From the IMG/VR virus record IMGVR_UViG_3300020213_000001: a stretch of DNA of 64,000 bases, one strand, 5' to 3'. The stretch is from a virus. Under the pieces are notes generated by a model that worked only from the letters and a program-made list of their open reading frames with translations, was not told the origin of the DNA and did not search any database. Positions 1 to 64,000 of the stretch are shown here, one piece after another. Made by a program: the position numbers and the translations under genes. Positions within the stretch are counted from its first letter, which is position 1, and the number at the start of each line of letters is the position of its first letter.

Positions 1-105
1 TATTGCCTATGAATACAAGGTTTGGCCAGTAGAGAGGTTATTGACCAGGAGTTAGCCGTTAAGCGATTGCATCAACATTAAGTTTCTAAACAGGCGATTG
101 ATTAG
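1..105 (+). pseudogene. Internally deleted remnant of the Ala-rich cassette family
   Basis: Frame 2 reads IAYEYKVWPVERLLTRS* (family: AYSDKIWVAKRVLTRSQ). It then jumps to gattgcatcaa and directly to aacattaagtttctaaacaggcgattgattag, identical to the 3' end of copy 952..1536. Confidence 0.7.
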
Positions 106-113
106 TATTTAGC

Positions 114-142
114 TTGACAAGCTTGGTTTTATATGGGATAAT
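114..142 (+). promoter_or_regulatory. sigma70-type early promoter (TTGACA-17-GATAAT, TGn extended -10)
   Basis: TTGACA 114-119, 17-bp spacer, GATAAT 137-142; the element recurs upstream of family members. Confidence 0.85.
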
Positions 143-166
143 GTACTGAGAGAGTGAGATAGAAAG

Positions 167-898
167 ATGCAAGTTAACAAAGAATTTCTGAAAAGCCTTA
201 AGCCTTGTGCTGACAGGTATAATGTTTTTCTAGAGCATAATGCTGATTTTAACGGAAGCCTTAATGATTTCCTGGACTTACCTAGTGTCAGCTATGAAGA
301 TAAGGTTTGGGTTGCAGAAAAGATTTTAACCCAAAATCAAGCTGTTAGCTGGTGTATTCTTTGTGCTGAAAGTGTGCTGTCTATTTTTGAATCAAAACAC
401 CCTGACAACCAAAGTCTTAGCAATTGCATCAATTTTCTTAAATCTATTAAGGATTTTAATAACTTGACAGATTCCCAATCATTAGAGATTAAGAGACATA
501 TAAAAGCCACCAAAGGTGCCGGCGATTTTGCCGCTGCCTGTTTTTTTGAATCTGCCACCCTTACTGACACCGATGCCACCGATGCTGCCACCGCCGATGC
601 TGCCTATGCTGTCCGCTGTGCTGCCCTTGCTGCCCGCTATGCGGCCCATGCTGCCCTTGCTGCCGCCGATGCTGTCAACTATGCCGCTCGTGCTGCCCTT
701 GCTGCCAATCACGCCACCAATGCTGCCACCGATGCCCATGCCACCCACTCATCTTCTTATGGCACTTCTGTCGCCAAGTATACCAATCACGCCACCACTC
801 TTGCTGCCGCCCGAGCTGCCAGCAATTCTATTAATGATGATGCCTTTCAAATTCAACAAGCTCTTAATCTTCAGTTTCTTAAGCAAGTGATTGATTAG
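167..898 (+). CDS. Cassette-family protein copy 1 (Imm5-like domain + Ala-rich variable region)
   Basis: Family motifs MQxNKEFLKSLxPCADRY, DKxWVA, WxxLCAESV, QQALNLQFLKQV. Confidence 0.9.
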   Translation: MQVNKEFLKSLKPCADRYNVFLEHNADFNGSLNDFLDLPSVSYEDKVWVAEKILTQNQAVSWCILCAESVLSIFESKHPDNQSLSNCINFLKSIKDFNNLTDSQSLEIKRHIKATKGAGDFAAACFFESATLTDTDATDAATADAAYAVRCAALAARYAAHAALAAADAVNYAARAALAANHATNAATDAHATHSSSYGTSVAKYTNHATTLAAARAASNSINDDAFQIQQALNLQFLKQVID

Positions 899-906
899 TA
901 TTTAGC

Positions 907-935
907 TTGACAAGTTTAGTTTTATATGGGATAAT
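907..935 (+). promoter_or_regulatory. sigma70-type early promoter
   Basis: TTGACA 907-912, 17 bp, GATAAT 930-935. Confidence 0.85.
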
Positions 936-951
936 GTACTGAGAGAGAGAG

Positions 952-1536
952 ATGAAGATTGATAAAGACGTATTGAAAGACTTAAACCCTTGCGCTGACA
1001 GATATAAGAATTTTCTAAAACACAATGCTGATTTTAGCGGAAGTCTTAGTGAATTCATGGACTTACCTACTGTTGCTTACTCTGATAAAATTTGGGTTGC
1101 AAAAAGGGTATTAAACAAGAATCAAGCTGTGAGTTGGGCAACGCTATGCGCTGAAAGTGTATTACATATGTTTGAAGAACAACACCTGGATGACAAGCGC
1201 CCTAGAGATTGCATCGATTTTCTTAAGTCTGTTAATGATTTTGATAGCTTGACAGTTGATCAAGCGTTAGGGATTAAAAGGCACGAAGAAGCCGCCAACG
1301 CTGTCCGCTTTACTGCCTTCCATGCCACCAATGCTGTCAGTGCTGCCAATGCCACCGAAGCTGCCGCCGCATGTGCTGCCAACTATGTCGACTACTTTGC
1401 CGAATATGCTGTACAGGCCGCCCATTATGCCATCGAAGCTGCCACCTATGCCAGCGATTCTATTAACAGTGCCGATAAAGAAAAACAAGAAGCTCTTAAC
1501 ATTAAGTTTCTAAACAGGCGATTGATTAGTATTTAG
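952..1536 (+). CDS. Cassette-family protein copy 2
   Basis: Same motifs; a 1-bp deletion near the end changes the tail to NRRLISI. Confidence 0.9.
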   Translation: MKIDKDVLKDLNPCADRYKNFLKHNADFSGSLSEFMDLPTVAYSDKIWVAKRVLNKNQAVSWATLCAESVLHMFEEQHLDDKRPRDCIDFLKSVNDFDSLTVDQALGIKRHEEAANAVRFTAFHATNAVSAANATEAAAACAANYVDYFAEYAVQAAHYAIEAATYASDSINSADKEKQEALNIKFLNRRLISI

Positions 1537-1537
1537 C

Positions 1538-1566
1538 TTGACATGCTTAGTTTTATATGTGATAAT
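1538..1566 (+). promoter_or_regulatory. sigma70-type early promoter
   Basis: TTGACA 1538-1543, 17 bp, GATAAT 1561-1566. Confidence 0.85.
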
Positions 1567-1586
1567 GTACCAATAGGGAGAGAGAG

Positions 1587-2195
1587 ATGAAGATTGATAA
1601 AGAATTCTTGAAAGACTTAAAGCATTGTGCTGACAGGTATGAATATTTGCTAAGGCATCACGGTGAGTTTAACGGAAGTCTTAGTGATTTCCTGGACTTA
1701 CCTAATCTTGATCTTGACTACGACGATAAAATCTGGGTTGCTATGAGAGTATTGACCAGGAGTCAAGCAATTAAATGGGCAATGCTCTGCGCTGAAAGCG
1801 TTGTTCATATTTTTGAAGATAAGCATCCCAATGATAAAAGCCTTAGAGATTGCATCGAGTTTCTTAAGAATGTTAATGATTTCGATAACTTGATAAATGC
1901 CAAGGCATTAGAATTTAAGAGACATATGAGGACTGCCTGGGTTGACACCGATTTTACCGCTGCCTGTTTTTTTGAATCTGCCGCCATAGGTGCCGCCGAT
2001 ATCGGAACCTCTGACCAAGCTGCCATCTATGCCGCTCGTGCTGCCCTTGCTGCTCGTGCTGCCCTTGCTGCCAATCACTCCACCATTGCTGCCACCCTTA
2101 CTGCCATCCGTGCTGCCAGCAATTCTATTAGTGCTGCCGCTTGGCAAAATCAAGAAGCCTTGAATCTTCAGTTTCTTAAGCAAGTGATTAATTAG
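1587..2195 (+). CDS. Cassette-family protein copy 3
   Basis: Same conserved N- and C-terminal motifs. Confidence 0.9.
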   Translation: MKIDKEFLKDLKHCADRYEYLLRHHGEFNGSLSDFLDLPNLDLDYDDKIWVAMRVLTRSQAIKWAMLCAESVVHIFEDKHPNDKSLRDCIEFLKNVNDFDNLINAKALEFKRHMRTAWVDTDFTAACFFESAAIGAADIGTSDQAAIYAARAALAARAALAANHSTIAATLTAIRAASNSISAAAWQNQEALNLQFLKQVIN

Positions 2196-2205
2196 TAGAA
2201 TTATA

Positions 2206-2234
2206 TTGACATGTCTGGTATTATATGTGATAAT
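2206..2234 (+). promoter_or_regulatory. sigma70-type early promoter
   Basis: TTGACA 2206-2211, 17 bp, GATAAT 2229-2234. Confidence 0.85.
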
Positions 2235-2258
2235 GTACTAACAGAGAGTGAGAGAGAT

Positions 2259-2813
2259 ATGAAGATTGATAAAGAATTCTTGAAAAGCCTTAGCCCTTGC
2301 ACTGACAGATATAGGCATTTCCTAGAGCATCACGCTAATTTTAGCGGAAGTCTTAATGATTTCCTTGACTTAACTAATCTTGACTACGATGATAAAATTT
2401 GGGTTGCAGAAAAGGTTTTAACCAAGAATCAAGCAATTAGCTGGGGAGTTCTTTGTGCTGAAAGCGTAGTGCATATTTTTGAAGCAAGATACCCAAAAGA
2501 CAAACGCCTTAGCAATTGTATCAATTTTCTTAAAACAGTTAAGGATTTCGATAACTTGACAAATGCTGAAAAGTCGGAGATTAAAAGACATATGAGTGAT
2601 GCCCATGCTGCCCGCCATGACGCCCATGCCTCCGACGCTGCCCGTGCTGCCCACGCTGTCTACTGTGCCGCCTATGCTGTCTACTGTGCTGCCAACTATG
2701 CCGTCTATGCTGCCCTCCTTGCAGCCGCTGATACCGGTGAAGATGCCAACGCTGCCGGGAATAACCAGCAAGAGCTTAACATTCAGTTTTTGAGAATGGC
2801 ATGTAGCCTATAA
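2259..2813 (+). CDS. Cassette-family protein copy 4
   Basis: Start moved from 2211 (inside the promoter) to MKIDKEF at 2259, matching paralogs. Confidence 0.9.
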   Translation: MKIDKEFLKSLSPCTDRYRHFLEHHANFSGSLNDFLDLTNLDYDDKIWVAEKVLTKNQAISWGVLCAESVVHIFEARYPKDKRLSNCINFLKTVKDFDNLTNAEKSEIKRHMSDAHAARHDAHASDAARAAHAVYCAAYAVYCAANYAVYAALLAAADTGEDANAAGNNQQELNIQFLRMACSL

Positions 2814-2843
2814 CCTCTTATCAACTTTAAAGGATTTTTTAAA

Positions 2844-3032
2844 ATGGAATTAGAAGCGTTTAAAAGCCGTTTAGAAGCATTCGATTGGGACTATGCTAGT
2901 ACCACTAGTCCCCAAGTCTATTGGTCAGGAGAACGCCTAGAGCAGGCCCTAAAGGACGATGCCCGTATGTTAGGTCGAGACGCTCAAATGCTTTACGTTA
3001 GATATAAAACCCAATCGACTAGTAAGGTATAG
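2844..3032 (+). CDS. Hypothetical protein inserted in the array
   Basis: 62-aa ORF with AAGGA RBS. Confidence 0.6.
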   Translation: MELEAFKSRLEAFDWDYASTTSPQVYWSGERLEQALKDDARMLGRDAQMLYVRYKTQSTSKV

Positions 3033-3045
3033 GGTAGGTTTTACA

Positions 3046-3405
3046 ATGAAAACAGTTTACCGCGTTGAACATGTTCTAAGTCGTAAGGGGCCCTATACCG
3101 GGATGAACTATTTCGACGAATATAAATGGAAAAAGGAAATGCATTGTTCTGCCACTGGTAGATCAGGGCCTATAGATGATAGTGTAATAGGAATGGGATT
3201 AGAGGAATTTTCAGAAAAGTGGGGCCGTGAAAATGTATTGTTCGGCTTTAGCTCTATAGAGCAATTAAAAAATTGGTTTACCAATGAAGAGCTGGCAGCA
3301 CTAGCTGATATGGATTATAAAATTCAGACGTATAAAACTAAATACATTAAAGCTAGTAAATTCCAAGTGGTTTTTGTTTGTCCCAAAGAAATCGAATATG
3401 ATTGA
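3046..3405 (+). CDS. Phage hypothetical protein (VYRVEH...FGFSSIEQLKNWF type)
   Basis: 119-aa ORF with a motif pattern recalled from early phage proteins. Confidence 0.7.
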   Translation: MKTVYRVEHVLSRKGPYTGMNYFDEYKWKKEMHCSATGRSGPIDDSVIGMGLEEFSEKWGRENVLFGFSSIEQLKNWFTNEELAALADMDYKIQTYKTKYIKASKFQVVFVCPKEIEYD

Positions 3406-3424
3406 TATTAAAAAGGAGGTACGT

Positions 3425-3997
3425 ATGCGAATTAATAAAGAATTCTTGAAAAGCTTAGAACCTTGCGATAATAGATATAATAATTATCTAGAACACCACT
3501 CCGATTTTGATGGTAGTTTTAGTGATTTCCTAGACTTAGACGGCATCCACTACGAAGATAACCTTTGGGTTACTAAAAAGATATTAAATAAGAATCAACT
3601 AATCAAATGGGCTATCCTCTGCGCTGAAAGTGTTGTGCCTATTTTTGAACACGAATGTCCGAATGATAACAGCGTTAGTAATTGTATCAATTATTTAAAG
3701 ACTTTTGAAGATTTTGACACACTGACTATCGATGAAAGGTTAGAAATTGAAAAACATGTAGATGCAAACAATAAACACTTCCGCGCTTTTCCCAGGACCA
3801 CCGATTATATCTACACTGCCCGTGATGCCTCCCGTGCTGCAACTTATTATGCAGCTTATTCTGCAGCTTCCTATGCATATACTAACCCGGCTTTCGATAC
3901 TGCCAGCTATACTATAGTCTCCAATACCAGCTATACTACCAAGCAAAATCAAAAAGCTCTTAACCTTCAGTTTCTTAAACAAGTAACTAGTGTTTGA
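3425..3997 (+). CDS. Cassette-family protein copy 5 (most divergent)
   Basis: AGGAGG RBS before ATG 3425 (MRINKEFLKSLEPC). Confidence 0.9.
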   Translation: MRINKEFLKSLEPCDNRYNNYLEHHSDFDGSFSDFLDLDGIHYEDNLWVTKKILNKNQLIKWAILCAESVVPIFEHECPNDNSVSNCINYLKTFEDFDTLTIDERLEIEKHVDANNKHFRAFPRTTDYIYTARDASRAATYYAAYSAASYAYTNPAFDTASYTIVSNTSYTTKQNQKALNLQFLKQVTSV

Positions 3998-4009
3998 AAA
4001 GGACTCCAT

Positions 4010-4639
4010 ATGCAAATCAATAAAGAATTCTTGAAAAGCCTTAACCCCTGTGCTGACAGGTATAAGGTTTTTCTAAAACATCACGGTAAGTTTAACGGAA
4101 GCTTTAGCGAATTCATGGACTTACCTAATCTTGACTATGAAGATAAAATCTGGGTTGCAAAAAGGGTATTAAACAAGAATCAAGCCGTTAGCTGGGCAAT
4201 TCTCTGTGCTCAAAGCGTAGTACCTGTTTTTGAGAAGGAATACCCGGATGACAAGCGCATTAGAGATTGCATCAATTTTCTTAAATCTATTGATGATTTC
4301 AATAACTTGACCTATATTGAACGGTCGGAGATTGAAAAACACTTCGATATTAGCGCAGACATTGTATCTGAATACGCCTGCGACTATGCTGTCAACTGTG
4401 CCGCCACCCATGCCTTCTATTATGTCGTCCATGCTGCCCACTATGTCGTCACCAGTGTTACCGCCAGTGCTGCCTATGTCGCCGGTGCCGAATATGCTGC
4501 CCTTGCTGCCCGCTATGCGGCCCATGCTGCCCTTGCTGCCAATGCTGTCCGCTCTGCCAGTAATTCTATTAATGATGACGCTTGGCAAAATCAACAAGCC
4601 TTGAATCTTCAGTTTTTGAGAATGGCTTCTAGTTTGTAA
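4010..4639 (+). CDS. Cassette-family protein copy 6
   Basis: Same conserved motifs. Confidence 0.9.
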   Translation: MQINKEFLKSLNPCADRYKVFLKHHGKFNGSFSEFMDLPNLDYEDKIWVAKRVLNKNQAVSWAILCAQSVVPVFEKEYPDDKRIRDCINFLKSIDDFNNLTYIERSEIEKHFDISADIVSEYACDYAVNCAATHAFYYVVHAAHYVVTSVTASAAYVAGAEYAALAARYAAHAALAANAVRSASNSINDDAWQNQQALNLQFLRMASSL

Positions 4640-4642
4640 GGG

Positions 4643-4671
4643 CTGACATGTCTGGTATTATATGTAACAAT
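4643..4671 (+). promoter_or_regulatory. Variant early promoter (CTGACA-17-AACAAT)
   Basis: Spacer identical to that of the promoter at 2206. Confidence 0.65.
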
Positions 4672-4697
4672 AGGTTAAGAGAGGCTGGGATATATTT

Positions 4698-5300
4698 ATG
4701 CAAATTAACAAAGAATTCCTGAAAAGTCTTAGACCTTGTGTTGGAATTTATAAGCGTTTTCTAAGGCATAGTGGAGATTTTGATGGAAGCTTTAGTGAAT
4801 TCCTAGACTTACCTAATCTTGACTACGACGATAAAGTTTGGGTTGCAGAAAAGGTTTTAACCAAGAATCAAGCTGTTAAGTGGGCAACGCTATGCGCTGA
4901 AAGTGTTGTACATATGTTTGAAGAACAGTGCCCAGGCAATAAATGTCTTAGTAATTGCATCGATTTTCTTAAATCTGTTAATGATTTCAATAGTTTGACT
5001 GATACTGAAAGGTTAGGGGTTGAGAGTTATGCTGCCGCTGCCTATGATGCCTATGATGCTGCCTACAGTACAGTATATGACTCTAGTGGTGCCGAATATG
5101 CTGCCCTTGCTGCCCGCTATGCGGCCCATGCTGCCCTTGCTGCCGCTGACCATTCTGCTTTCTATGCTGCCGGTGCTGCCAGCACTTCCACCTCTGCCCA
5201 TGCTACCAATTTTGCTATAGTATACGGTGACACCTATGATGGTGTTAAACAACAACAAGCCTTAAATATTAAATTTCTTAAACAAGTAACTGGTGCTTAA
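4698..5300 (+). CDS. Cassette-family protein copy 7
   Basis: Same conserved motifs. Confidence 0.9.
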   Translation: MQINKEFLKSLRPCVGIYKRFLRHSGDFDGSFSEFLDLPNLDYDDKVWVAEKVLTKNQAVKWATLCAESVVHMFEEQCPGNKCLSNCIDFLKSVNDFNSLTDTERLGVESYAAAAYDAYDAAYSTVYDSSGAEYAALAARYAAHAALAAADHSAFYAAGAASTSTSAHATNFAIVYGDTYDGVKQQQALNIKFLKQVTGA

Positions 5301-5520
5301 AAAGGAGATGCTTATGGAAACAATTATTCTGTTCTATTCTCTGAAAGAAATAGTGGAAAAACATGGAGATGGTCTAAAAATCTGTAGCAACTATATGTAT
5401 TGCAAGGGTGGTCACCTTCAAGCATATGACTTCGATCTTTTGGGTAAAGAAGAACTAGTACCTGACTATAAACTTCGCTCTATTCCTCAATGGGCCATTA
5501 AACAAAACAAAGGATTTTAA
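5293..5520 (+). CDS. Hypothetical protein (start probably slightly downstream, after AAGGAG)
   Basis: ORF packed in the + operon. Confidence 0.55.
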   Translation: MLKKEMLMETIILFYSLKEIVEKHGDGLKICSNYMYCKGGHLQAYDFDLLGKEELVPDYKLRSIPQWAIKQNKGF

Positions 5521-5521
5521 T

Positions 5522-5755
5522 ATGAACGCAAAAAAAGCCAAGAAAATTCGCAAAGCACTTAAACTTAAACTACCTGTAGTGCCTGACTATCGTGTTAGCA
5601 ATAAAGTGACTAAGCTAACCTACAATCTCACTACCGACGCTGAAGGTAAGGAAATCGTCACAACTACTCCTGTGGAGCGAATTAGTATTGTAAACGCTGC
5701 TAAAAATCAGTATCGCGCTATTAAAAAAGTTATTTCTCGTACTAATCAATTTTAA
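5522..5755 (+). CDS. Small basic hypothetical protein
   Basis: MNAKKAKKIRK N-terminus, RBS, tight packing. Confidence 0.65.
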   Translation: MNAKKAKKIRKALKLKLPVVPDYRVSNKVTKLTYNLTTDAEGKEIVTTTPVERISIVNAAKNQYRAIKKVISRTNQF

Positions 5756-5766
5756 AAGGTGTAAAG

Positions 5767-6810
5767 ATGTCTAAATGGATGACTCAGTTGAATAAAATGG
5801 AAGGTGCTGTTGACAGGGAATACAACCCGTATCTACCTGAAAACACTATCAAAACCAAGTCCCCAAGCCTTAATTGGATTTTCAGCAAAAGCGCAGGACT
5901 TCCTTTCGGGGAATTCATGCTACTTTGGGGGCCACCTAAAGCCGGTAAGTCTGTAGTGACTAACTCCTTTGTTGCCGGTCTTCACTCCATGGATAAAGAC
6001 TACATGGCACTAAAGTTTGATACAGAAATGCGTGAAATGGGTAAGATTGAACCCTTTTGGGGAATTGATGAGAATAGATTTGCCGTTCAAAACGTAAACG
6101 AGCCTGAATTTATTTTTGATCGTCTTAAGAAAGACATTTTCCCCATGGTAGAGCAGGGAATGCCTCTTAAACTCATTATCATTGACTCATTAACCGGTAT
6201 CCAAGGCGTCAAGGAGTCCAATAGGGACAGTATCACTAACCATTTGATGGGTGATCATGCCAAAACTATCCAGGACGGTCTAAAGGCTATTATGCCTTTT
6301 ATACGACGCAATAAGATCGCCCTGATCAGTACCGCGCACATTCGCGGCAACATGGAAGCTGGATCTTACGGCCCCAAAGAAAAAATGGCTGGCGGTTGGG
6401 CTCAGAAACACACTTACGAGTACTTCGTCAAAATCACTAGGGATAATTCAGCCGACGGCAAAAAAACCGCTACGGGTGAAAGCCTAGAAACCGAAATGAA
6501 AGACTTTAAGGGCAAATCGCAGCTCTCTGGTCACAAAATCTATATTGAAATGACCGAAAGCACTCGCGGTGCTGCCGGTAGGTCTGGTCAAATTACTTTT
6601 GATTACAACGCTGGTATTACGAACATGGAAGAAGAGATTTTTGAGCTATCTAAAATGCTCAGCCTGGTAGAACGTCCTAACAATAGGACATACAACTACG
6701 ATGGACAAAGCTTTACTTCTAAAAACGAATACATCGATGCAATTAAAAATAACCATGAAATGGCTGAAAAACTACTAAAACAAATCTACAGCAAACAAGG
6801 CGTAGTCTAA
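5767..6810 (+). CDS. recA: RecA/UvsX-like recombinase
   Basis: Walker A GPPKAGKS, DTE, Walker B IIIDS, AGG motif in RecA order. Confidence 0.85.
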   Translation: MSKWMTQLNKMEGAVDREYNPYLPENTIKTKSPSLNWIFSKSAGLPFGEFMLLWGPPKAGKSVVTNSFVAGLHSMDKDYMALKFDTEMREMGKIEPFWGIDENRFAVQNVNEPEFIFDRLKKDIFPMVEQGMPLKLIIIDSLTGIQGVKESNRDSITNHLMGDHAKTIQDGLKAIMPFIRRNKIALISTAHIRGNMEAGSYGPKEKMAGGWAQKHTYEYFVKITRDNSADGKKTATGESLETEMKDFKGKSQLSGHKIYIEMTESTRGAAGRSGQITFDYNAGITNMEEEIFELSKMLSLVERPNNRTYNYDGQSFTSKNEYIDAIKNNHEMAEKLLKQIYSKQGVV

Positions 6811-26247: not shown

Positions 26248-26868
26248 ATGCAAATTAACAAAGAATTCTTGAAAAGCCTTAAACCCTGTGCTGACAGGTA
26301 TAAGGTTTTTCTAGAACACCATGCTGATTTTAGCGGAAGTCTTAATGATTTCCTGGACTTACCTGATCTTGACTACGACGATAAAATTTGGATTGCAAGG
26401 AAGGTATTAATCAGGAATCAACTGGTTAAATGGGCAACGCTATGCGCTGAAAGTGTATTACATATGTTTGAAGATAAGCATCCAGGTGACAAACGCCTTA
26501 GTGATTGCATCAATTTTCTTAAAACCGTTAATAATTTCAATATCTTGACATATGCTCAACTATTAGAGGTTAGTAGACATATAAGCGCTACCAATAGTGC
26601 CCGCTTTGTTTCCAGTGCTGCCTGTGTTTCCAGTGATTCCGCCAGCGCTGCCCTTGCCGTCTATTTTGCCGTCTATGCCGCCAACTATGCCTATGCTACC
26701 TATGCCACCGAAGCTGACTATGCTGCAGCCTATACCGCCCATTATGCCATCGAAGCTGCCACCTATGCCACCGAATCTGCCAAGGATGCCGGTAAAGATG
26801 ATGACGCTGCTCAACAAAATCAAGAAGCTCTTAACATTAAGTTTCTTAAGCAAGTGATTAGTTTGTAA
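26248..26868 (+). CDS. Cassette-family protein copy 8 (solo, antisense to the tail module)
   Basis: AGGAG RBS, MQINKEFLKSLKPCADRY start at 26248. Confidence 0.9.
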   Translation: MQINKEFLKSLKPCADRYKVFLEHHADFSGSLNDFLDLPDLDYDDKIWIARKVLIRNQLVKWATLCAESVLHMFEDKHPGDKRLSDCINFLKTVNNFNILTYAQLLEVSRHISATNSARFVSSAACVSSDSASAALAVYFAVYAANYAYATYATEADYAAAYTAHYAIEAATYATESAKDAGKDDDAAQQNQEALNIKFLKQVISL

Positions 26869-59261: not shown

Positions 59262-59341
59262 TGGTACGACATCAGAGAATCGAACCCTGATTTCAAGTGT
59301 TTATAAGACACTTCCGGTAAACCACCAGCCCGCCATGTCGC
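59262..59341 (-). tRNA. tRNA-Ile (anticodon TAT)
   Basis: Acceptor GCGACAT/ATGTCGT + A-CCA; anticodon arm AGTGT-CTTATAA-ACACT; T arm CAGGG-TTCGATT-CTCTG. Confidence 0.8.
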
Positions 59342-59454: not shown

Positions 59455-60423
59455 TTAGCTATTCCTAGTTCTTTTGCTTTTAGCGGCGACCTTTAGATCT
59501 GAAATCATCTTTTCCATTGTGCAATCCTCTGCATTTAAATCGTCACGAAAGCGGAAAAATGTAGGGTGGCGAAGTCTTGGTGGGCTGTTTTTTGTTTTTA
59601 AAACTTCCTGCGCCCAGACATCCAGAACTTTTCCTTCGTATTCATAAAAGTTTTTGCTCATTTTAATTCTTAACTCGTCGTCAAAGCCGGAGGCAAATCC
59701 CACTTCCACAAGGGAGCCATTCTGATATACCGAAAGCGCTAGTGAGCCAATCATTCCCTTGTACTTGTTGGTCCCCTCTTTCCAACCAGACACTACTACT
59801 GAAACGTCATAGGACTTCTTCATTTTTGACCAAAATTTTCCGTAACCCATTCGAATGTCTTTTATGATTAACCCTTCGCCTCCTGCTGCTACCACTTTAT
59901 TAAATTCTGCGGAGAATCCAGAAGTAATCCAAGGAATAGGCTTAACGAATTCGTTACCCATTTTTTTAACGACTGCTTCTAGTAATTTCCTGCGCTGCTC
60001 AAGTGGGAGATCTCTAACGTCTTTGCCCTGAAACATCATGATGTCGAAAACCATATAGGTTAGGTTTCCAAGTTCTTTCTGTTTACAAGACGCTTCTGCC
60101 GCGCCGGAGTTCATTATTGAATTAGTATTTAAAAAGTCGCTTGAAACTATTTCTCCATCAATCACAGTACCTTCTAGGCCCTCGTAATCAACCTTGGTGA
60201 TGTGTGGGATATTGTCAGTCTTGTCTACCAGCAAACCGTCAGACACAGAGCCGCGCCTAGAAAGAAGTGTATGTCCTGACTTTCTTCTTTCGTATGGGCA
60301 TGAGTCGAAATACATAACATATCGTGAGCCATCAATTTTTTCTTCAGCTATAAAATAAGGCTTATCAAAGTCTTCAGGAAGTTTTGCTGTACAACGGCTA
60401 GGGATACATAATTCTAATTTCAT
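59455..60423 (-). CDS. ATP-dependent DNA ligase
   Basis: EEKIDGSR (KxDG), IDGE, VFDI, EGLIIK, WSKMK, LRHPTF.RFRDD. Confidence 0.9.
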   Translation of the reverse strand: MKLELCIPSRCTAKLPEDFDKPYFIAEEKIDGSRYVMYFDSCPYERRKSGHTLLSRRGSVSDGLLVDKTDNIPHITKVDYEGLEGTVIDGEIVSSDFLNTNSIMNSGAAEASCKQKELGNLTYMVFDIMMFQGKDVRDLPLEQRRKLLEAVVKKMGNEFVKPIPWITSGFSAEFNKVVAAGGEGLIIKDIRMGYGKFWSKMKKSYDVSVVVSGWKEGTNKYKGMIGSLALSVYQNGSLVEVGFASGFDDELRIKMSKNFYEYEGKVLDVWAQEVLKTKNSPPRLRHPTFFRFRDDLNAEDCTMEKMISDLKVAAKSKRTRNS

Positions 60424-60514: not shown

Positions 60515-61105
60515 TTAAACCCCACCTATTACTTGGTTGAGAAATTTAAGATTCAAGGCTTGCTGTTTAAGCTTGGCAGCAATGTAAATAGCATCTTCAA
60601 CATCACTGGAAGCATTGGCGGCAGCAAAGGCAGCTTGGGCAGCACCTTCGACGGCATAGTGGGCAGCGGCGTTGGTAAAAAAGACATAGTCGGCATTAGT
60701 GGCAATGAATGCAATGGGGGAATCATCGGCAGCATCGCGGGTATAGCAGAAGGCAACACACTTCGCTTTTACACGCTTTTTAACCTCTAATATTTGAGCA
60801 TCTGTCAAGCTATCGAAATCATTAACAGTCTTAAGAAAATTGATGCAATTGCTAAGGCTCTTATCACCTTTATATTTTTCTTCAAAAATATGTACTACGC
60901 TTTCAATGCATAGCATTGCCCATTTAACTAGTTGATTCTTGGTTAATACCCTTTTTGCAACCCAAACTTTATCGTCGTAGTTGACATTAGGTAAGTACAG
61001 GAAATCACTAAAGCTTCCGTCAAAATCAGCATTGTAATTCAGAAAATGTTCATATCTGTCAGCACAAGGCTCTAGGTTTTTCAGTACTTCTTTATTGATT
61101 TGCAT
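60515..61105 (-). CDS. Cassette-family protein copy 9
   Basis: Family motifs. Confidence 0.9.
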   Translation of the reverse strand: MQINKEVLKNLEPCADRYEHFLNYNADFDGSFSDFLYLPNVNYDDKVWVAKRVLTKNQLVKWAMLCIESVVHIFEEKYKGDKSLSNCINFLKTVNDFDSLTDAQILEVKKRVKAKCVAFCYTRDAADDSPIAFIATNADYVFFTNAAAHYAVEGAAQAAFAAANASSDVEDAIYIAAKLKQQALNLKFLNQVIGGV

Positions 61106-61116
61106 AAATATCCTGG

Positions 61117-61746
61117 TTAAGCACTGATTGCTTGTTTCAAAAACTGAAGGTTAAGGGCTTGCTGTTTAAGACTGGCAGCGGCAGCATCTTCACCGTAAAT
61201 GTCACAATAACCAAGGGTATCATCATAGGTAGCTTCGGCGGCGTAACACAAGACGTGGGAGGCAACATCGACAGCATAGGCGGCAGCATAGGAATCACAG
61301 TAGGAGACGTGGACAAGGGCGGCAACATGGGAAACATTGAGAGCGTGGGCAGCGTGGCCAACAAAGATGTCAGGGTCGGTAGAAGCACGGGCAACAGCAA
61401 GGGCGAGATCTCTGTGCTTTTTAAGCTCTAATGCTTGATCAATTGTCAAGTTATTAAAATCCTTAACTGTTTTAAGGTAATTGATACAATTAATAACATG
61501 TTTATAATCCGGGTGTTGTTCTTCAAAAATATGCACTACGCTTTCAGCGCATAGCGTTGCCCAGCTAATGGCTTGGTTCTTGTTTAATACCCTTTTTGCA
61601 ACCCAAATTTTATCGACATATTCAAGATTGGGTAATTCCATGAATTCGCTAAGACTTCCATCAAAATCAGCGTGATGTTTTAGAAAAACCTTATACCTGT
61701 AATAACAGGGTTTAAGGCTTTTCAAGAATTCTTTATTAATTTGCAT
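61117..61746 (-). CDS. Cassette-family protein copy 10
   Basis: Family motifs; start MQINKEF at 61746. Confidence 0.9.
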   Translation of the reverse strand: MQINKEFLKSLKPCYYRYKVFLKHHADFDGSLSEFMELPNLEYVDKIWVAKRVLNKNQAISWATLCAESVVHIFEEQHPDYKHVINCINYLKTVKDFNNLTIDQALELKKHRDLALAVARASTDPDIFVGHAAHALNVSHVAALVHVSYCDSYAAAYAVDVASHVLCYAAEATYDDTLGYCDIYGEDAAAASLKQQALNLQFLKQAISA

Positions 61747-61764
61747 AAATCCCTCTCTCAAGCC

Positions 61765-61793
61765 ATTATCCCATATAAGACTAAGCTTGTCAA
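61765..61793 (-). promoter_or_regulatory. sigma70-type early promoter
   Basis: TTGACA-17-GATAAT on -. Confidence 0.85.
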
Positions 61794-61801
61794 GCTAAAT
61801 A

Positions 61802-62431
61802 CTAATTAATCACTTGCTTAAGAAACTGAAGATTTAAGGCTTCTTGATTTTCAAGAGCAGCAATTTTATTAGAATCACAGACGGCATGGGTGGCATAGGA
61901 AGCATAGATGGCAGCTTGGGCAGCATGGGCGGCATAGATGACAGCTTGGAAAGAGGTGGAGGCAAAGGTGGCAGAATGGGCGGCAGCATGGGCAGAGGTG
62001 GCGGCATAGTTGGCAGCATGGGCGGTGGCATTGGTAGAAAAGAGAGTAGCACTGGCGGCTGCATGGGCAGCATCGGTGGCAGCAGAGGTGGCTATTTTAT
62101 GCTTCTTAATCTCTAATGGTTGACAATTGATCAAGCGGTCGAAATCATTAATAGATTTAAGGTAGTTGATGCAATCACTAAGGCGCTTGTCATCTGGATA
62201 TTTTGCTTCAAACATATGTACAACACTTTCAGCGCATAGCGTTGCCCATTTAACGGCTTTATTTTTGTTTAAAATCTCCCTTGCAACCCAAATTTTATCG
62301 TCGTAGTTGACATTAGGTAAGTCAAGGAATTCACTAAAGCTTCCGTTAAACTCACCGTGATGTTTTATAAAATGCTCATACCTGTCGGTAAAAAGGTTAA
62401 TACTTTTCAAGAATTCTTTGTTAATTTGCAT
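61802..62431 (-). CDS. Cassette-family protein copy 11
   Basis: Family motifs. Confidence 0.9.
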   Translation of the reverse strand: MQINKEFLKSINLFTDRYEHFIKHHGEFNGSFSEFLDLPNVNYDDKIWVAREILNKNKAVKWATLCAESVVHMFEAKYPDDKRLSDCINYLKSINDFDRLINCQPLEIKKHKIATSAATDAAHAAASATLFSTNATAHAANYAATSAHAAAHSATFASTSFQAVIYAAHAAQAAIYASYATHAVCDSNKIAALENQEALNLQFLKQVIN

Positions 62432-62459
62432 AATTCACTCCTGTTTTTACTCTTAACCC

Positions 62460-62488
62460 ATTGTTACATATAAGACTAAACTTGTCAA
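62460..62488 (-). promoter_or_regulatory. sigma70-type early promoter (variant -10)
   Basis: TTGACA-17-AACAAT on -. Confidence 0.75.
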
Positions 62489-62498
62489 TATAATTCTA

Positions 62499-63152
62499 CT
62501 AATTAATCACTTGTTTTAGAAACTTAATATTTAAGGCTTCTTGACTTTCTTGAGCAGCAATTTTATTAGAATCACTAGCATCGGTGGTGGCATAGAAGGC
62601 AGCTTGGACAGCATAGCACTCAGTATCGGCGACATCAACATCGATGTCATAGGCAGCAAGGGTGGCATAGGCGGCTTCACGGACAGCGGCACGGACAGCG
62701 GCACCGACAGCATCGGCGGCACCGGCAGCATAGGGGGCACGGGAACAATAGGCGGTAAGAGAGACAGCATAGGGGCCACCAGCGGCAACGAAACAAGCAG
62801 CTCGGGAGGCTTCTTCATGTCTCTTAATCTCTGATGCTTGATCATTTGTCAAATTATCAAAATCCTTAACTGTTTTAAGGTAGCTAATGCAATCACTAAG
62901 ACTCTGGTTATCAGGGTATTCTTTCTCAAAAATATGAACAACGCTTTCAGCGCATAGCGTTGCCCACTTAACAGCTTGATTCTTGGTTAAAACTCTCCTT
63001 GCAATCCAGATTTTATCGACATATTCAAGATTGGGTAGGTCCAGGAAATCATTAAGACTTCCGCTAAACTCACCGTGATGTTCTAGGAAATGCTTATACC
63101 TGTTGTCGCAAGGGTTTAGGCTTTTCAATACGTCTTTGTTGATCTTCATCAT
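62499..63152 (-). CDS. Cassette-family protein copy 12
   Basis: Family motifs; start MMKINKDV. Confidence 0.9.
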   Translation of the reverse strand: MMKINKDVLKSLNPCDNRYKHFLEHHGEFSGSLNDFLDLPNLEYVDKIWIARRVLTKNQAVKWATLCAESVVHIFEKEYPDNQSLSDCISYLKTVKDFDNLTNDQASEIKRHEEASRAACFVAAGGPYAVSLTAYCSRAPYAAGAADAVGAAVRAAVREAAYATLAAYDIDVDVADTECYAVQAAFYATTDASDSNKIAAQESQEALNIKFLKQVIN

Positions 63153-63161
63153 CTTTCCCTC

Positions 63162-63190
63162 ATTATCACATATAATACCAGACATGTCAA
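63162..63190 (-). promoter_or_regulatory. sigma70-type early promoter
   Basis: TTGACA-17-GATAAT, identical to the promoter at 2206-2234. Confidence 0.85.
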
Positions 63191-63200
63191 TATAATTCCA

Positions 63201-63857
63201 CTAATTAATCACTTGTTTAAGAAACTTAATGTTAAGAGCTTGTTGGTTATGCTTGGAAGCATCATCAATAGAATCCCGATCATCATAGGTGGCAGCATAG
63301 GTGGCATAGTCGGCAGCATAGTCGGCAGCATAGCTGGTAGCATAGGTGGCAACATCGACAGCATAGCGTACTTCACGAGCGGCAGCAAAGACGGCATAGT
63401 AGGCAGCACGAGCAGCATTGGTGGCACCGATGGCGGCGATGGCGGCACAACGGACAGCATAGGCAGCATCAGCGGCAGCTTCGATGGCAAAGCGGGCAGC
63501 ATGGACAGCTCGGGCATCACTTATATGTCTCTTAATCTCTGATGCTTGATCAACTGTCAAGTTATCGAAATCATTAACTGTTTTAAGGTAGTTGATGCAA
63601 TCTCTAATGCATCTTTCATCCGGGTATTCTTTTTCAAAAACATGTACTACGCTTTCAGCACAAAGAATTGCCCAGTTAATGGCTTGATTCCTTGTTAAAA
63701 CTCTCCCTGCAACCCAGATTTTATCATTGTAGTCAAGATTAGGTAAGTCAAGGAATTCACTAAAACTACCGCTAAAATCAGCGTGACGCTCTAGAAAATG
63801 CCTATATCTGTCAACACAAGGCTCTAGGTTTTTCAGTACTTCTTTGTTAATTTGCAT
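63201..63857 (-). CDS. Cassette-family protein copy 13
   Basis: Family motifs. Confidence 0.9.
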   Translation of the reverse strand: MQINKEVLKNLEPCVDRYRHFLERHADFSGSFSEFLDLPNLDYNDKIWVAGRVLTRNQAINWAILCAESVVHVFEKEYPDERCIRDCINYLKTVNDFDNLTVDQASEIKRHISDARAVHAARFAIEAAADAAYAVRCAAIAAIGATNAARAAYYAVFAAAREVRYAVDVATYATSYAADYAADYATYAATYDDRDSIDDASKHNQQALNIKFLKQVIN

Positions 63858-63866
63858 CTTTCCCTC

Positions 63867-63895
63867 ATTGTTACATATAACCCTAAGCTTGTCAA
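63867..63895 (-). promoter_or_regulatory. sigma70-type early promoter (variant -10)
   Basis: TTGACA-17-AACAAT on -. Confidence 0.75.
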
Positions 63896-63898
63896 CCT

Positions 63899-64000
63899 TT
63901 ACAAACTACATGCCATTCTCAAAAACTGAATGTTAAGCTCTTGCTGGTTATTCCCGGCAGCGTCAGCATCTTCACCGGTATCAGCGGCTGCAAGGAGGGC
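63899..64000 (-). CDS. Cassette-family copy 14 (3' end only; continues beyond the window)
   Basis: ALLAAADTGEDADAAGNNQQELNIQFLRMACSL*, nearly identical to the end of copy 4. Confidence 0.85.
   Translation of the reverse strand, partial: ALLAAADTGEDADAAGNNQQELNIQFLRMACSL

Follow-up and report, generated by a model that had tools for sequence, protein, structure and literature searches.

How can paralogous genes that have drifted far apart carry variable regions built partly of the same, unaltered blocks of DNA? The question is raised by a stretch of phage DNA of 64,000 nucleotides (nt) from the IMG/VR record IMGVR_UViG_3300020213_000001, here called the window, where an Imm5-like helical protein (184–243 amino acids (aa)) is encoded by 13 complete paralogous genes. 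All 13 are full open reading frames (ORFs) with start codons, and beside them stand one decayed remnant (c0) and one copy cut by the window end (c14). The first array (c1–c7) lies on the plus strand at 167–5300, c8 is solitary, and the second array (c9–c13) lies on the minus strand at 60515–63857. In each copy an alanine-rich core (57–117 aa) stands between a conserved N-terminal domain (~112 aa) and a conserved C-terminal helix, and the variable cores cannot be aligned between most copies. The favoured answer, to which we give a probability of about three in four, is that the shared blocks arise by ectopic (non-allelic) recombination among the copies, through gene conversion combined with repeat-mediated in-frame insertions and deletions (indels). 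That paralog-to-paralog exchange is real and ongoing in this phage gene family is well supported.

The blocks were defined by a search for maximal exact matches between all cores. The longest run, of 57 nt, is common to c6 (4010–4639) and c7 (4698–5300), where 4484–4540 equals 5088–5144 without a mismatch. Much of it recurs in the core (~503–853) of c1 (167–898), with 620–664, 4496–4540 and 5100–5144 identical over all 45 nt. Taken pairwise, c1 shares 48 nt with c7, whose block reaches 5146 in this comparison, and 46 nt with c6. A run of 36 nt connects the cores of c2 (952–1536) and c8 (26248–26868, plus strand), which lie ~25 kb apart, and extends the 34-nt match of 1420–1453 to 26737–26770 (0 mismatches). 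Between c1 and c3 (1587–2195) there are runs of 27, 27, 26 and 19 nt, in colinear order, and 524–556 differs from 1950–1982 by one mismatch in 33 nt. Shorter runs are common to c11 (61802–62431) and c12 (62499–63152), at 24 nt, and to c1 and c13 (63201–63857), at 20 nt. A sequence-only reading of the window had already pointed out the matches of 33, 45 and 34 nt and the 57-nt extension between c6 and c7, all of which were recovered as described; the peptide blocks that it listed for c1/c13, c1/c3 (with an extra AAL unit in c3) and c11/c12 are likewise all present. Its statement that blocks are common to non-adjacent copies holds for c1/c3, c1/c6/c7, c2/c8 and c1/c13, but c6/c7 and c11/c12 are pairs of neighbours.

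Because the composition of the cores is peculiar, the runs were compared with two composition-preserving nulls of 200 replicates each, one shuffling the codons within each core and the other following a first-order codon Markov model. The longest null run was 22 nt under codon shuffling and 26 nt under the Markov model, against observed runs of 57, 48, 46, 36, 27, 27, 26 and 24 nt. The larger blocks are therefore identical by descent, and chance is excluded for them. Taken alone, the 20-nt match of c1 and c13 is inside the null range; this pair also has a common 11-residue peptide, in which 8 of 11 codons are identical, and a 25-nt match to a further copy in the strain contig L015. Over all peptide blocks of at least 6 common residues, 174 of 201 codons are identical, compared with 105 expected from core codon usage.

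The genes that carry these blocks are old by comparison. Their N-terminal domains are 66–81% identical in nucleotides (mean 75%), and third codon positions are at 66%. Partners in a block are no closer than the average in this domain (c6/c7 74%, c1/c3 71%, c2/c8 78%), and the maximum-likelihood N-terminal tree is a star with terminal branches of 0.10–0.40. Stretches of 45–57 nt without a single difference, set beside flanks that cannot be aligned, in genes whose N-terminal domains are ~75% identical, mean that the blocks are younger than the genes. Nor is exchange confined to the cores, as significant tracts also occur within the N-terminal domain. The sequence-only reading had proposed a GENECONV analysis; a GENECONV-like permutation test on the 336-nt N-terminal alignment is positive globally for c7/c12 (p<0.001), c4/c7 (p=0.018) and c3/c7 (p=0.04), the N-terminal domain of c7 thus having a conversion-like tract with c12, and the pairwise homoplasy index (PHI) on this alignment gives p=0.002. 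When clades defined by the blocks were put to approximately unbiased (AU) tests on the N-terminal domain, (c1,c3) was marginally rejected at p=0.03 and (c2,c8) at p=0.04. Such topology tests are weak because the tree is an unresolved star, and more reliance is placed on the disparity in depth between blocks and genes and on the evidence from strains.

Near-identical strains, represented by metagenome contigs, show what has changed most recently. Contig L013, at 98.5–99% identity to the window over 1–2814, has 12 substitutions and 4 indels relative to it. The substitutions lie closer together than chance would place them (four adjacent gaps are ≤5 nt; P=5e-5). Of the four clusters that they form, three have an allele that reproduces another paralog exactly. 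In the first, the pair 122/125 in the c1 promoter equals the c2 promoter. The second lies in the tail of c2 (1511–1519), where a 1-nt indel and 2 substitutions match exactly the tail of remnant c0 at 77–105. The third, in the N-terminal domain of c4 (2259–2813) at 2446–2471, equals a paralog in contig L014. Among random two-substitution clusters, an exact copy was found in 1 of 3000 trials. The apparent donor c0 (2–112, plus strand) consists of an N-terminal fragment with an internal stop, joined directly to the family tail. Over this tail and the bases downstream it is identical to c2, whose tail is odd in being frameshifted and ends in NRRLISI.

Three of the L013 indels fall in cores. They measure 138, 9 and 9 nt, all are in frame, and they are flanked by direct repeats of 18, 7 and 7 nt; a 9-nt unit of c3 (2057–2065) is among the polymorphic pieces. 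Strain L015 has a further in-frame core indel, an insertion of 9 nt in c12, and the flanking direct repeats across all core indels range from 4 to 18 nt. The repeats in which the junctions fall are TGCTGCC, GCCACCA, TGCC and one of 18 nt. The 138-nt segment (575–712 in c1), which is absent from L013 at 99% identity and whose 18-nt flanking repeat has one mismatch, contains blocks that had been noticed from the sequence alone. Its fine structure is that of a mosaic: c1 from 596 to 712 is tiled gap-free by sequences of four other paralogs, with overlaps between tiles of 3, 6 and 19 nt. Position 597–621 matches a copy beyond the window end (L015_2383, which also shares its block with c13), 619–666 matches c7 (and c6 as far as 664), 661–697 matches the copy L023_662, and 679–712 matches c3. 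The tiles fit c1 as a recipient and c1 as a supplier equally well.

Exchange also reaches across the two arrays. L015 is 98.9% identical over 62468–64000, and its main difference is a 19-nt cluster of six substitutions and one indel (63926–63944) in the tail of c14, of which the window holds the C-terminal end (63899–64000, minus strand). The window allele equals the tail of c4 (0 of 29 mismatches), while L015 retains the c14-type tail of other strains (1 of 29). The cluster is a short conversion tract, and the two copies involved sit on inverted arms with 61 kb between them. Unequal exchange is recorded in contig L022, which matches 63674–62968 at 100% identity, covering c13 and the 200 nt at the start of c12, before it switches to 62254–61423, again at 100%, for the rest of c11 and for c10. 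The junction is a perfect overlap of 5 nt, too short for a word-based assembly error, and it produces a c12::c11 hybrid, with the 5' part of c12 and the 3' part of c11, in which one repeat unit has been removed. In L011, the ~99% identity across 2700–4010 gives way on both sides to ~75%, the level of paralogs, with one break inside the core and tail of c4 and the other exactly at the start codon of c6. Copy c5 (3425–3997), the core of which is unique in the window, is ~99% identical in L011, where its neighbour genes are different paralogs. Finally, the core of a more distant copy, L024_250, follows one paralog of L016 except at 11 consecutive informative sites, which follow another.

The cores have a codon vocabulary of their own. 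Codons ending in C or T make up 91% in the cores versus 59% in the flanks, and a similar bias is found in more than 40 metagenomic relatives (0.78–0.95). Synonymous choice switches within one gene: arginine is CGY in the core and AGR in the flanks, and alanine is GCC or GCT in the core (337 of 352 core alanines) and GCT or GCA in the flanks. The dicodon GCTGCC accounts for 74 of the 127 Ala-Ala pairs in the cores. The k-mers that cores have in common fall almost always in the same codon phase (98.8% of 6-mers; 99.9% of 8-mers, 3465 of 3470). This means that with a vocabulary that is GCY-rich and three-periodic, almost any join at a microhomology stays in frame, and in-frame joins are what is expected from codon phasing, matching the in-frame core indels that are observed. 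The suggestion that GCTGCC itself serves as the microhomology is plausible and fits the indel junctions, but statistics cannot single it out: the motif is found at 31% of block ends against a background of 14%, a statistic that is biased, since a common motif extends matches by chance, and that is not relied on here.

Recombination among the copies would work in several ways. In gene conversion, of a homologous or homeologous kind, a paralog would take up short tracts from another paralog or from a decayed remnant, and occasional unequal crossovers between paralogs would make hybrid genes. Slippage, recombination or single-strand annealing between short direct repeats would add or remove in-frame pieces of the core, and the codon-phased vocabulary would keep the microhomology joins in frame. 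The gene at 5767–6810 (plus strand), for a RecA/UvsX-like recombinase, is a candidate for catalysing the exchanges and lies directly downstream of the first array. Selection may favour new cores.

Several observations weigh against recombination among the copies. For most blocks the donor cannot be told from the recipient, and exchange with a co-infecting strain is inseparable from exchange inside one genome. The AU tests leave (c6,c7), (c1,c6,c7) and (c11,c12) unrejected on an N-terminal tree that does not resolve. Synonymous sites alone put single blocks only moderately above the N-terminal domain in similarity: codon identity at identical residues is 73% in that domain, so that 19 identical codons of 19 have a probability of ~0.003. 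A large part of each core is without a partner in the data; under a strict threshold the greater part of every core occurs only once in the window, with c5, c9 (60515–61105, minus strand) and c10 (61117–61746, minus strand) having next to nothing in common with other copies. The population evidence comes entirely from short metagenome contigs, in which assembly errors that mix strains are possible, and L022 has another junction, within a 71-nt tract common to two paralogs, that may be a chimeric assembly.

Some of these points would suit plain vertical descent, the alternative that survives best and which we nevertheless consider improbable. Here a single ancestral core would have passed down one tree with many losses and no exchange, and the blocks would be relics that had survived indels and substitutions. 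The blocks of c1, c3 and c6 are indeed colinear, deletions mediated by repeats do happen, and both the unrejected clades and the moderate synonymous-site excess of single blocks are what such relics would give. The sets {c1,c6,c7} and {c1,c3}, however, are incompatible as clades unless several losses are assumed, and descent alone leaves the significant N-terminal tracts unexplained, as it does 100% identity over 45–57 nt beside unalignable flanks in genes that are 25% diverged. It also gives no account of strain-level clusters that are exactly another paralog (1 in 3000 in the control), of a c4-type tail on c14 in this genome only, or of the c12::c11 hybrid. Segmental exchange between paralogs, as the sequence-only reading had proposed, is upheld by the perfect blocks in genes with ~75%-identical N-terminal domains, by the GENECONV-like and PHI tests, by the templated changes and repeat-flanked in-frame indels among strains and by the hybrid gene.

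An assembly artefact, with the repeated low-complexity cores misjoined from different paralogs or strains in the window and in the comparison contigs, is very unlikely. The source metagenome does have several coexisting close strains, and the L022 junction in the 71-nt common tract is of the kind that such misjoining would leave. Against this, the independent contig L013 reproduces c1–c4 at 98.5–99% identity, including the c1/c3 blocks and the c2 block, and both c12 and c11 are reproduced by L015 and L022. The 5-nt overlap of the c12::c11 hybrid and the 3- and 6-nt overlaps of the c1 tiles are far under the word size of any assembler, and the differences are in frame and flanked by repeats, as expected of biology rather than of graph errors.

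A dedicated diversification machine is scarcely credible, whether it is taken to be a diversity-generating retroelement or a programmed system of cassettes in which silent donors supply one expressed gene. In its favour, the excess of C- and T-ending codons follows the codon logic of retroelement variable regions, the cores are placed close to the C-terminus with a conserved stretch after them, and remnant c0 seems to serve as a donor. Against it, scans of ~30 window ORFs revealed no reverse-transcriptase domain, and in these 64 kb of a ~155-kb genome the cores have no template-like copy outside the genes. Core lengths differ by up to 60 residues, the strain changes are indels and templated tracts instead of substitutions at adenine sites, and every copy is a full ORF, with strong promoter-like sites of their own for c1–c4 and a single decayed remnant.

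The promoter-like sites are near-identical and lie before c1 (114–142), c2 (907–935), c3 (1538–1566) and c4 (2206–2234). Each consists of TTGACA, a spacer of 17 nt and a TG-extended GATAAT, and scores 11/12 with an extended −10. This arrangement bears on the comparison with antigenic variation by segmental gene conversion, known from Neisseria pilE/pilS, Borrelia vlsE and Anaplasma msp2. As in those systems, mosaic variable regions from several donors stand between conserved flanks, and there is at least one non-functional, donor-like remnant. The analogy with antigenic-variation cassettes that had been drawn from the sequence does not hold beyond this, since neither a lone expression site nor a store of silent cassettes is present and nothing points to programmed switching at high frequency; all copies are full ORFs, and they appear, by prediction, to be separately expressed. 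The protein Mtd of Bordetella phage BPP-1 has a variable region of the diversity-generating retroelement type, and the cores resemble it in being phage-borne, hypervariable and C-proximal, and in a choice of codons that no change at positions 1 and 2 can turn into stops. They differ from it in that neither a reverse transcriptase nor a template repeat was found in the window, and in their variable length, their indels and their paralog-templated tracts.

Parallels also exist in the multigene families under ectopic gene conversion and unequal crossing-over, such as the surface-antigen paralogs of Plasmodium (PMC10919680) and the tandem arrays of trypanosomes (PMC1855330). Short identical tracts in diverged paralogs, hybrid genes, clustered templated substitutions and star-like trees are common to these and to the arrays described here. 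The arrays differ in belonging to a phage genome, in exchanging a codon-phased, alanine-rich repeat region, and in that inverted arms 61 kb apart also exchange. The evolutionary process is thus of a known kind, while its carrier and the recombination-safe design of the sequence are unusual. Phage recombinases are known to tolerate short, diverged homology, and relaxed recombination drives phage mosaicism (De Paepe et al. 2014, PMC3945230; for Sak/Sak4, PMC5499656). The hybrid crossover is of this type, with its 5-nt perfect overlap within ~34 nt of ~90% identity, and a recombinase gene adjoins the array. Those studies concerned exchange between phages or prophages, whereas the partners here are paralogs of one genome, and the candidate recombinase is RecA/UvsX-like, not Rad52-like.

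The protein family itself points towards immunity proteins. The Imm5_like model (Pfam PF21805; Imm5 is PF14423) matches c2 with 33.6 bits, c6 with 30.7 and c13 with 25.2, above the cut-off of 25, and c1 falls under it with 22 bits; many of the metagenomic relatives carry PF21805. Imm5 has been described as a predicted immunity protein, mostly helical, from polymorphic toxin systems, and polyimmunity loci contain it as well (Zhang et al. 2012, PMC3482391). The arrays resemble such loci in their tandem organization, in their small, mostly helical genes of immunity type, and in the lack of an adjacent toxin, no toxin gene having been found beside the arrays among the ~30 window ORFs scanned. They are different in being phage-borne and in consisting of a single family with a hypervariable repeat core, and their immunity role is putative. 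An AlphaFold model of c1 has a predicted local distance difference test score (pLDDT) of 76–94 in the N-terminal domain and 87–89 in the tail helix; the core is modelled as helical but unreliably (34–52). A Foldseek search of the PDB gave no match with E below 0.001. The proteins might bind or block toxins or defence effectors of the host or of competitors.

A protein search for relatives of the family returned 52, all metagenomic, and a metagenome scan returned 18 loci from microbial-mat samples, three of which are near-identical strains of parts of the window. IMG/VR holds distant relatives only (identity ≤44%). Comparison with known phages gave no megablast match for 1–6000, no tblastn match for a tail-region protein, and for c6 a weak hit to a Methanosarcina virus only; the family alignment found no relative in bacterial and archaeal genomes. 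No earlier description of such a phage array was found in the literature. One distant relative, from a different sample series (L027:10001–10342 and downstream), is 51% identical in the N-terminal domain, and its core plainly consists of an alanine-rich unit repeated in tandem, with 51% Ala and 95% NNY codons. Judging by this sequence, it is suggested that the cores are born by repeat expansion. Two further irregularities occur among the strains. L014 contains three copies twice, inverted and identical, either a real inverted duplication from another array or a fold-back of the assembly, and L015 is without one base at window position 63807, in the N-terminal domain of c13, which would cause a frameshift and may be a real inactivation or a sequencing error.

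The surroundings of the arrays are those of a large phage. The window is probably part of a ~155-kb contig of an uncultured phage, and ORF scans identify tail and baseplate proteins, the UvsX/RecA-like recombinase, a DnaB-like helicase, ThyX, ClpP, an ATP-dependent ligase and a C5 methylase. The inner borders of both arrays are occupied by genes for DNA transactions, the recombinase on the one side (5767–6810) and the ATP-dependent DNA ligase on the other (59455–60423). The ligase gene is separated from a block of small genes by a tRNA-Ile gene with the anticodon TAT (59262–59341). The first array is split between c4 and c5 by two unrelated small ORFs at 2844–3405, one of which matches phrog_1106; this insert, together with c5, is ~99% conserved in L011, where the flanking paralogs differ.

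A broader proposal can be put forward tentatively, and we regard it as possible but doubtful. In it the arrays would be a diversity generator that is independent of reverse transcriptase, with stop-proof, codon-phased cores (GCY-rich, NNY) maintained so that a recombination event at whatever microhomology would produce a new helix, in frame and free of stops. Any of at least 25 expressed copies, and the decayed remnants, could serve as donors, the RecA-like recombinase next to the array would drive the process, and a panel of binders would be renewed faster than by point mutation. The codon-phased repeat vocabulary would be a form of sequence organization that makes recombination safe.

Phages are known to diversify their proteins by retroelements and by the swapping of modules between genomes, and what is seen here is a large in-genome library of one small helical protein. 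The comparison with near-identical strains suggests that most of the recent changes in the array are recombinational and not point mutations. If the proteins inhibit toxins or defence effectors of the host, this would be a simple and general route by which a virus could explore binding surfaces.

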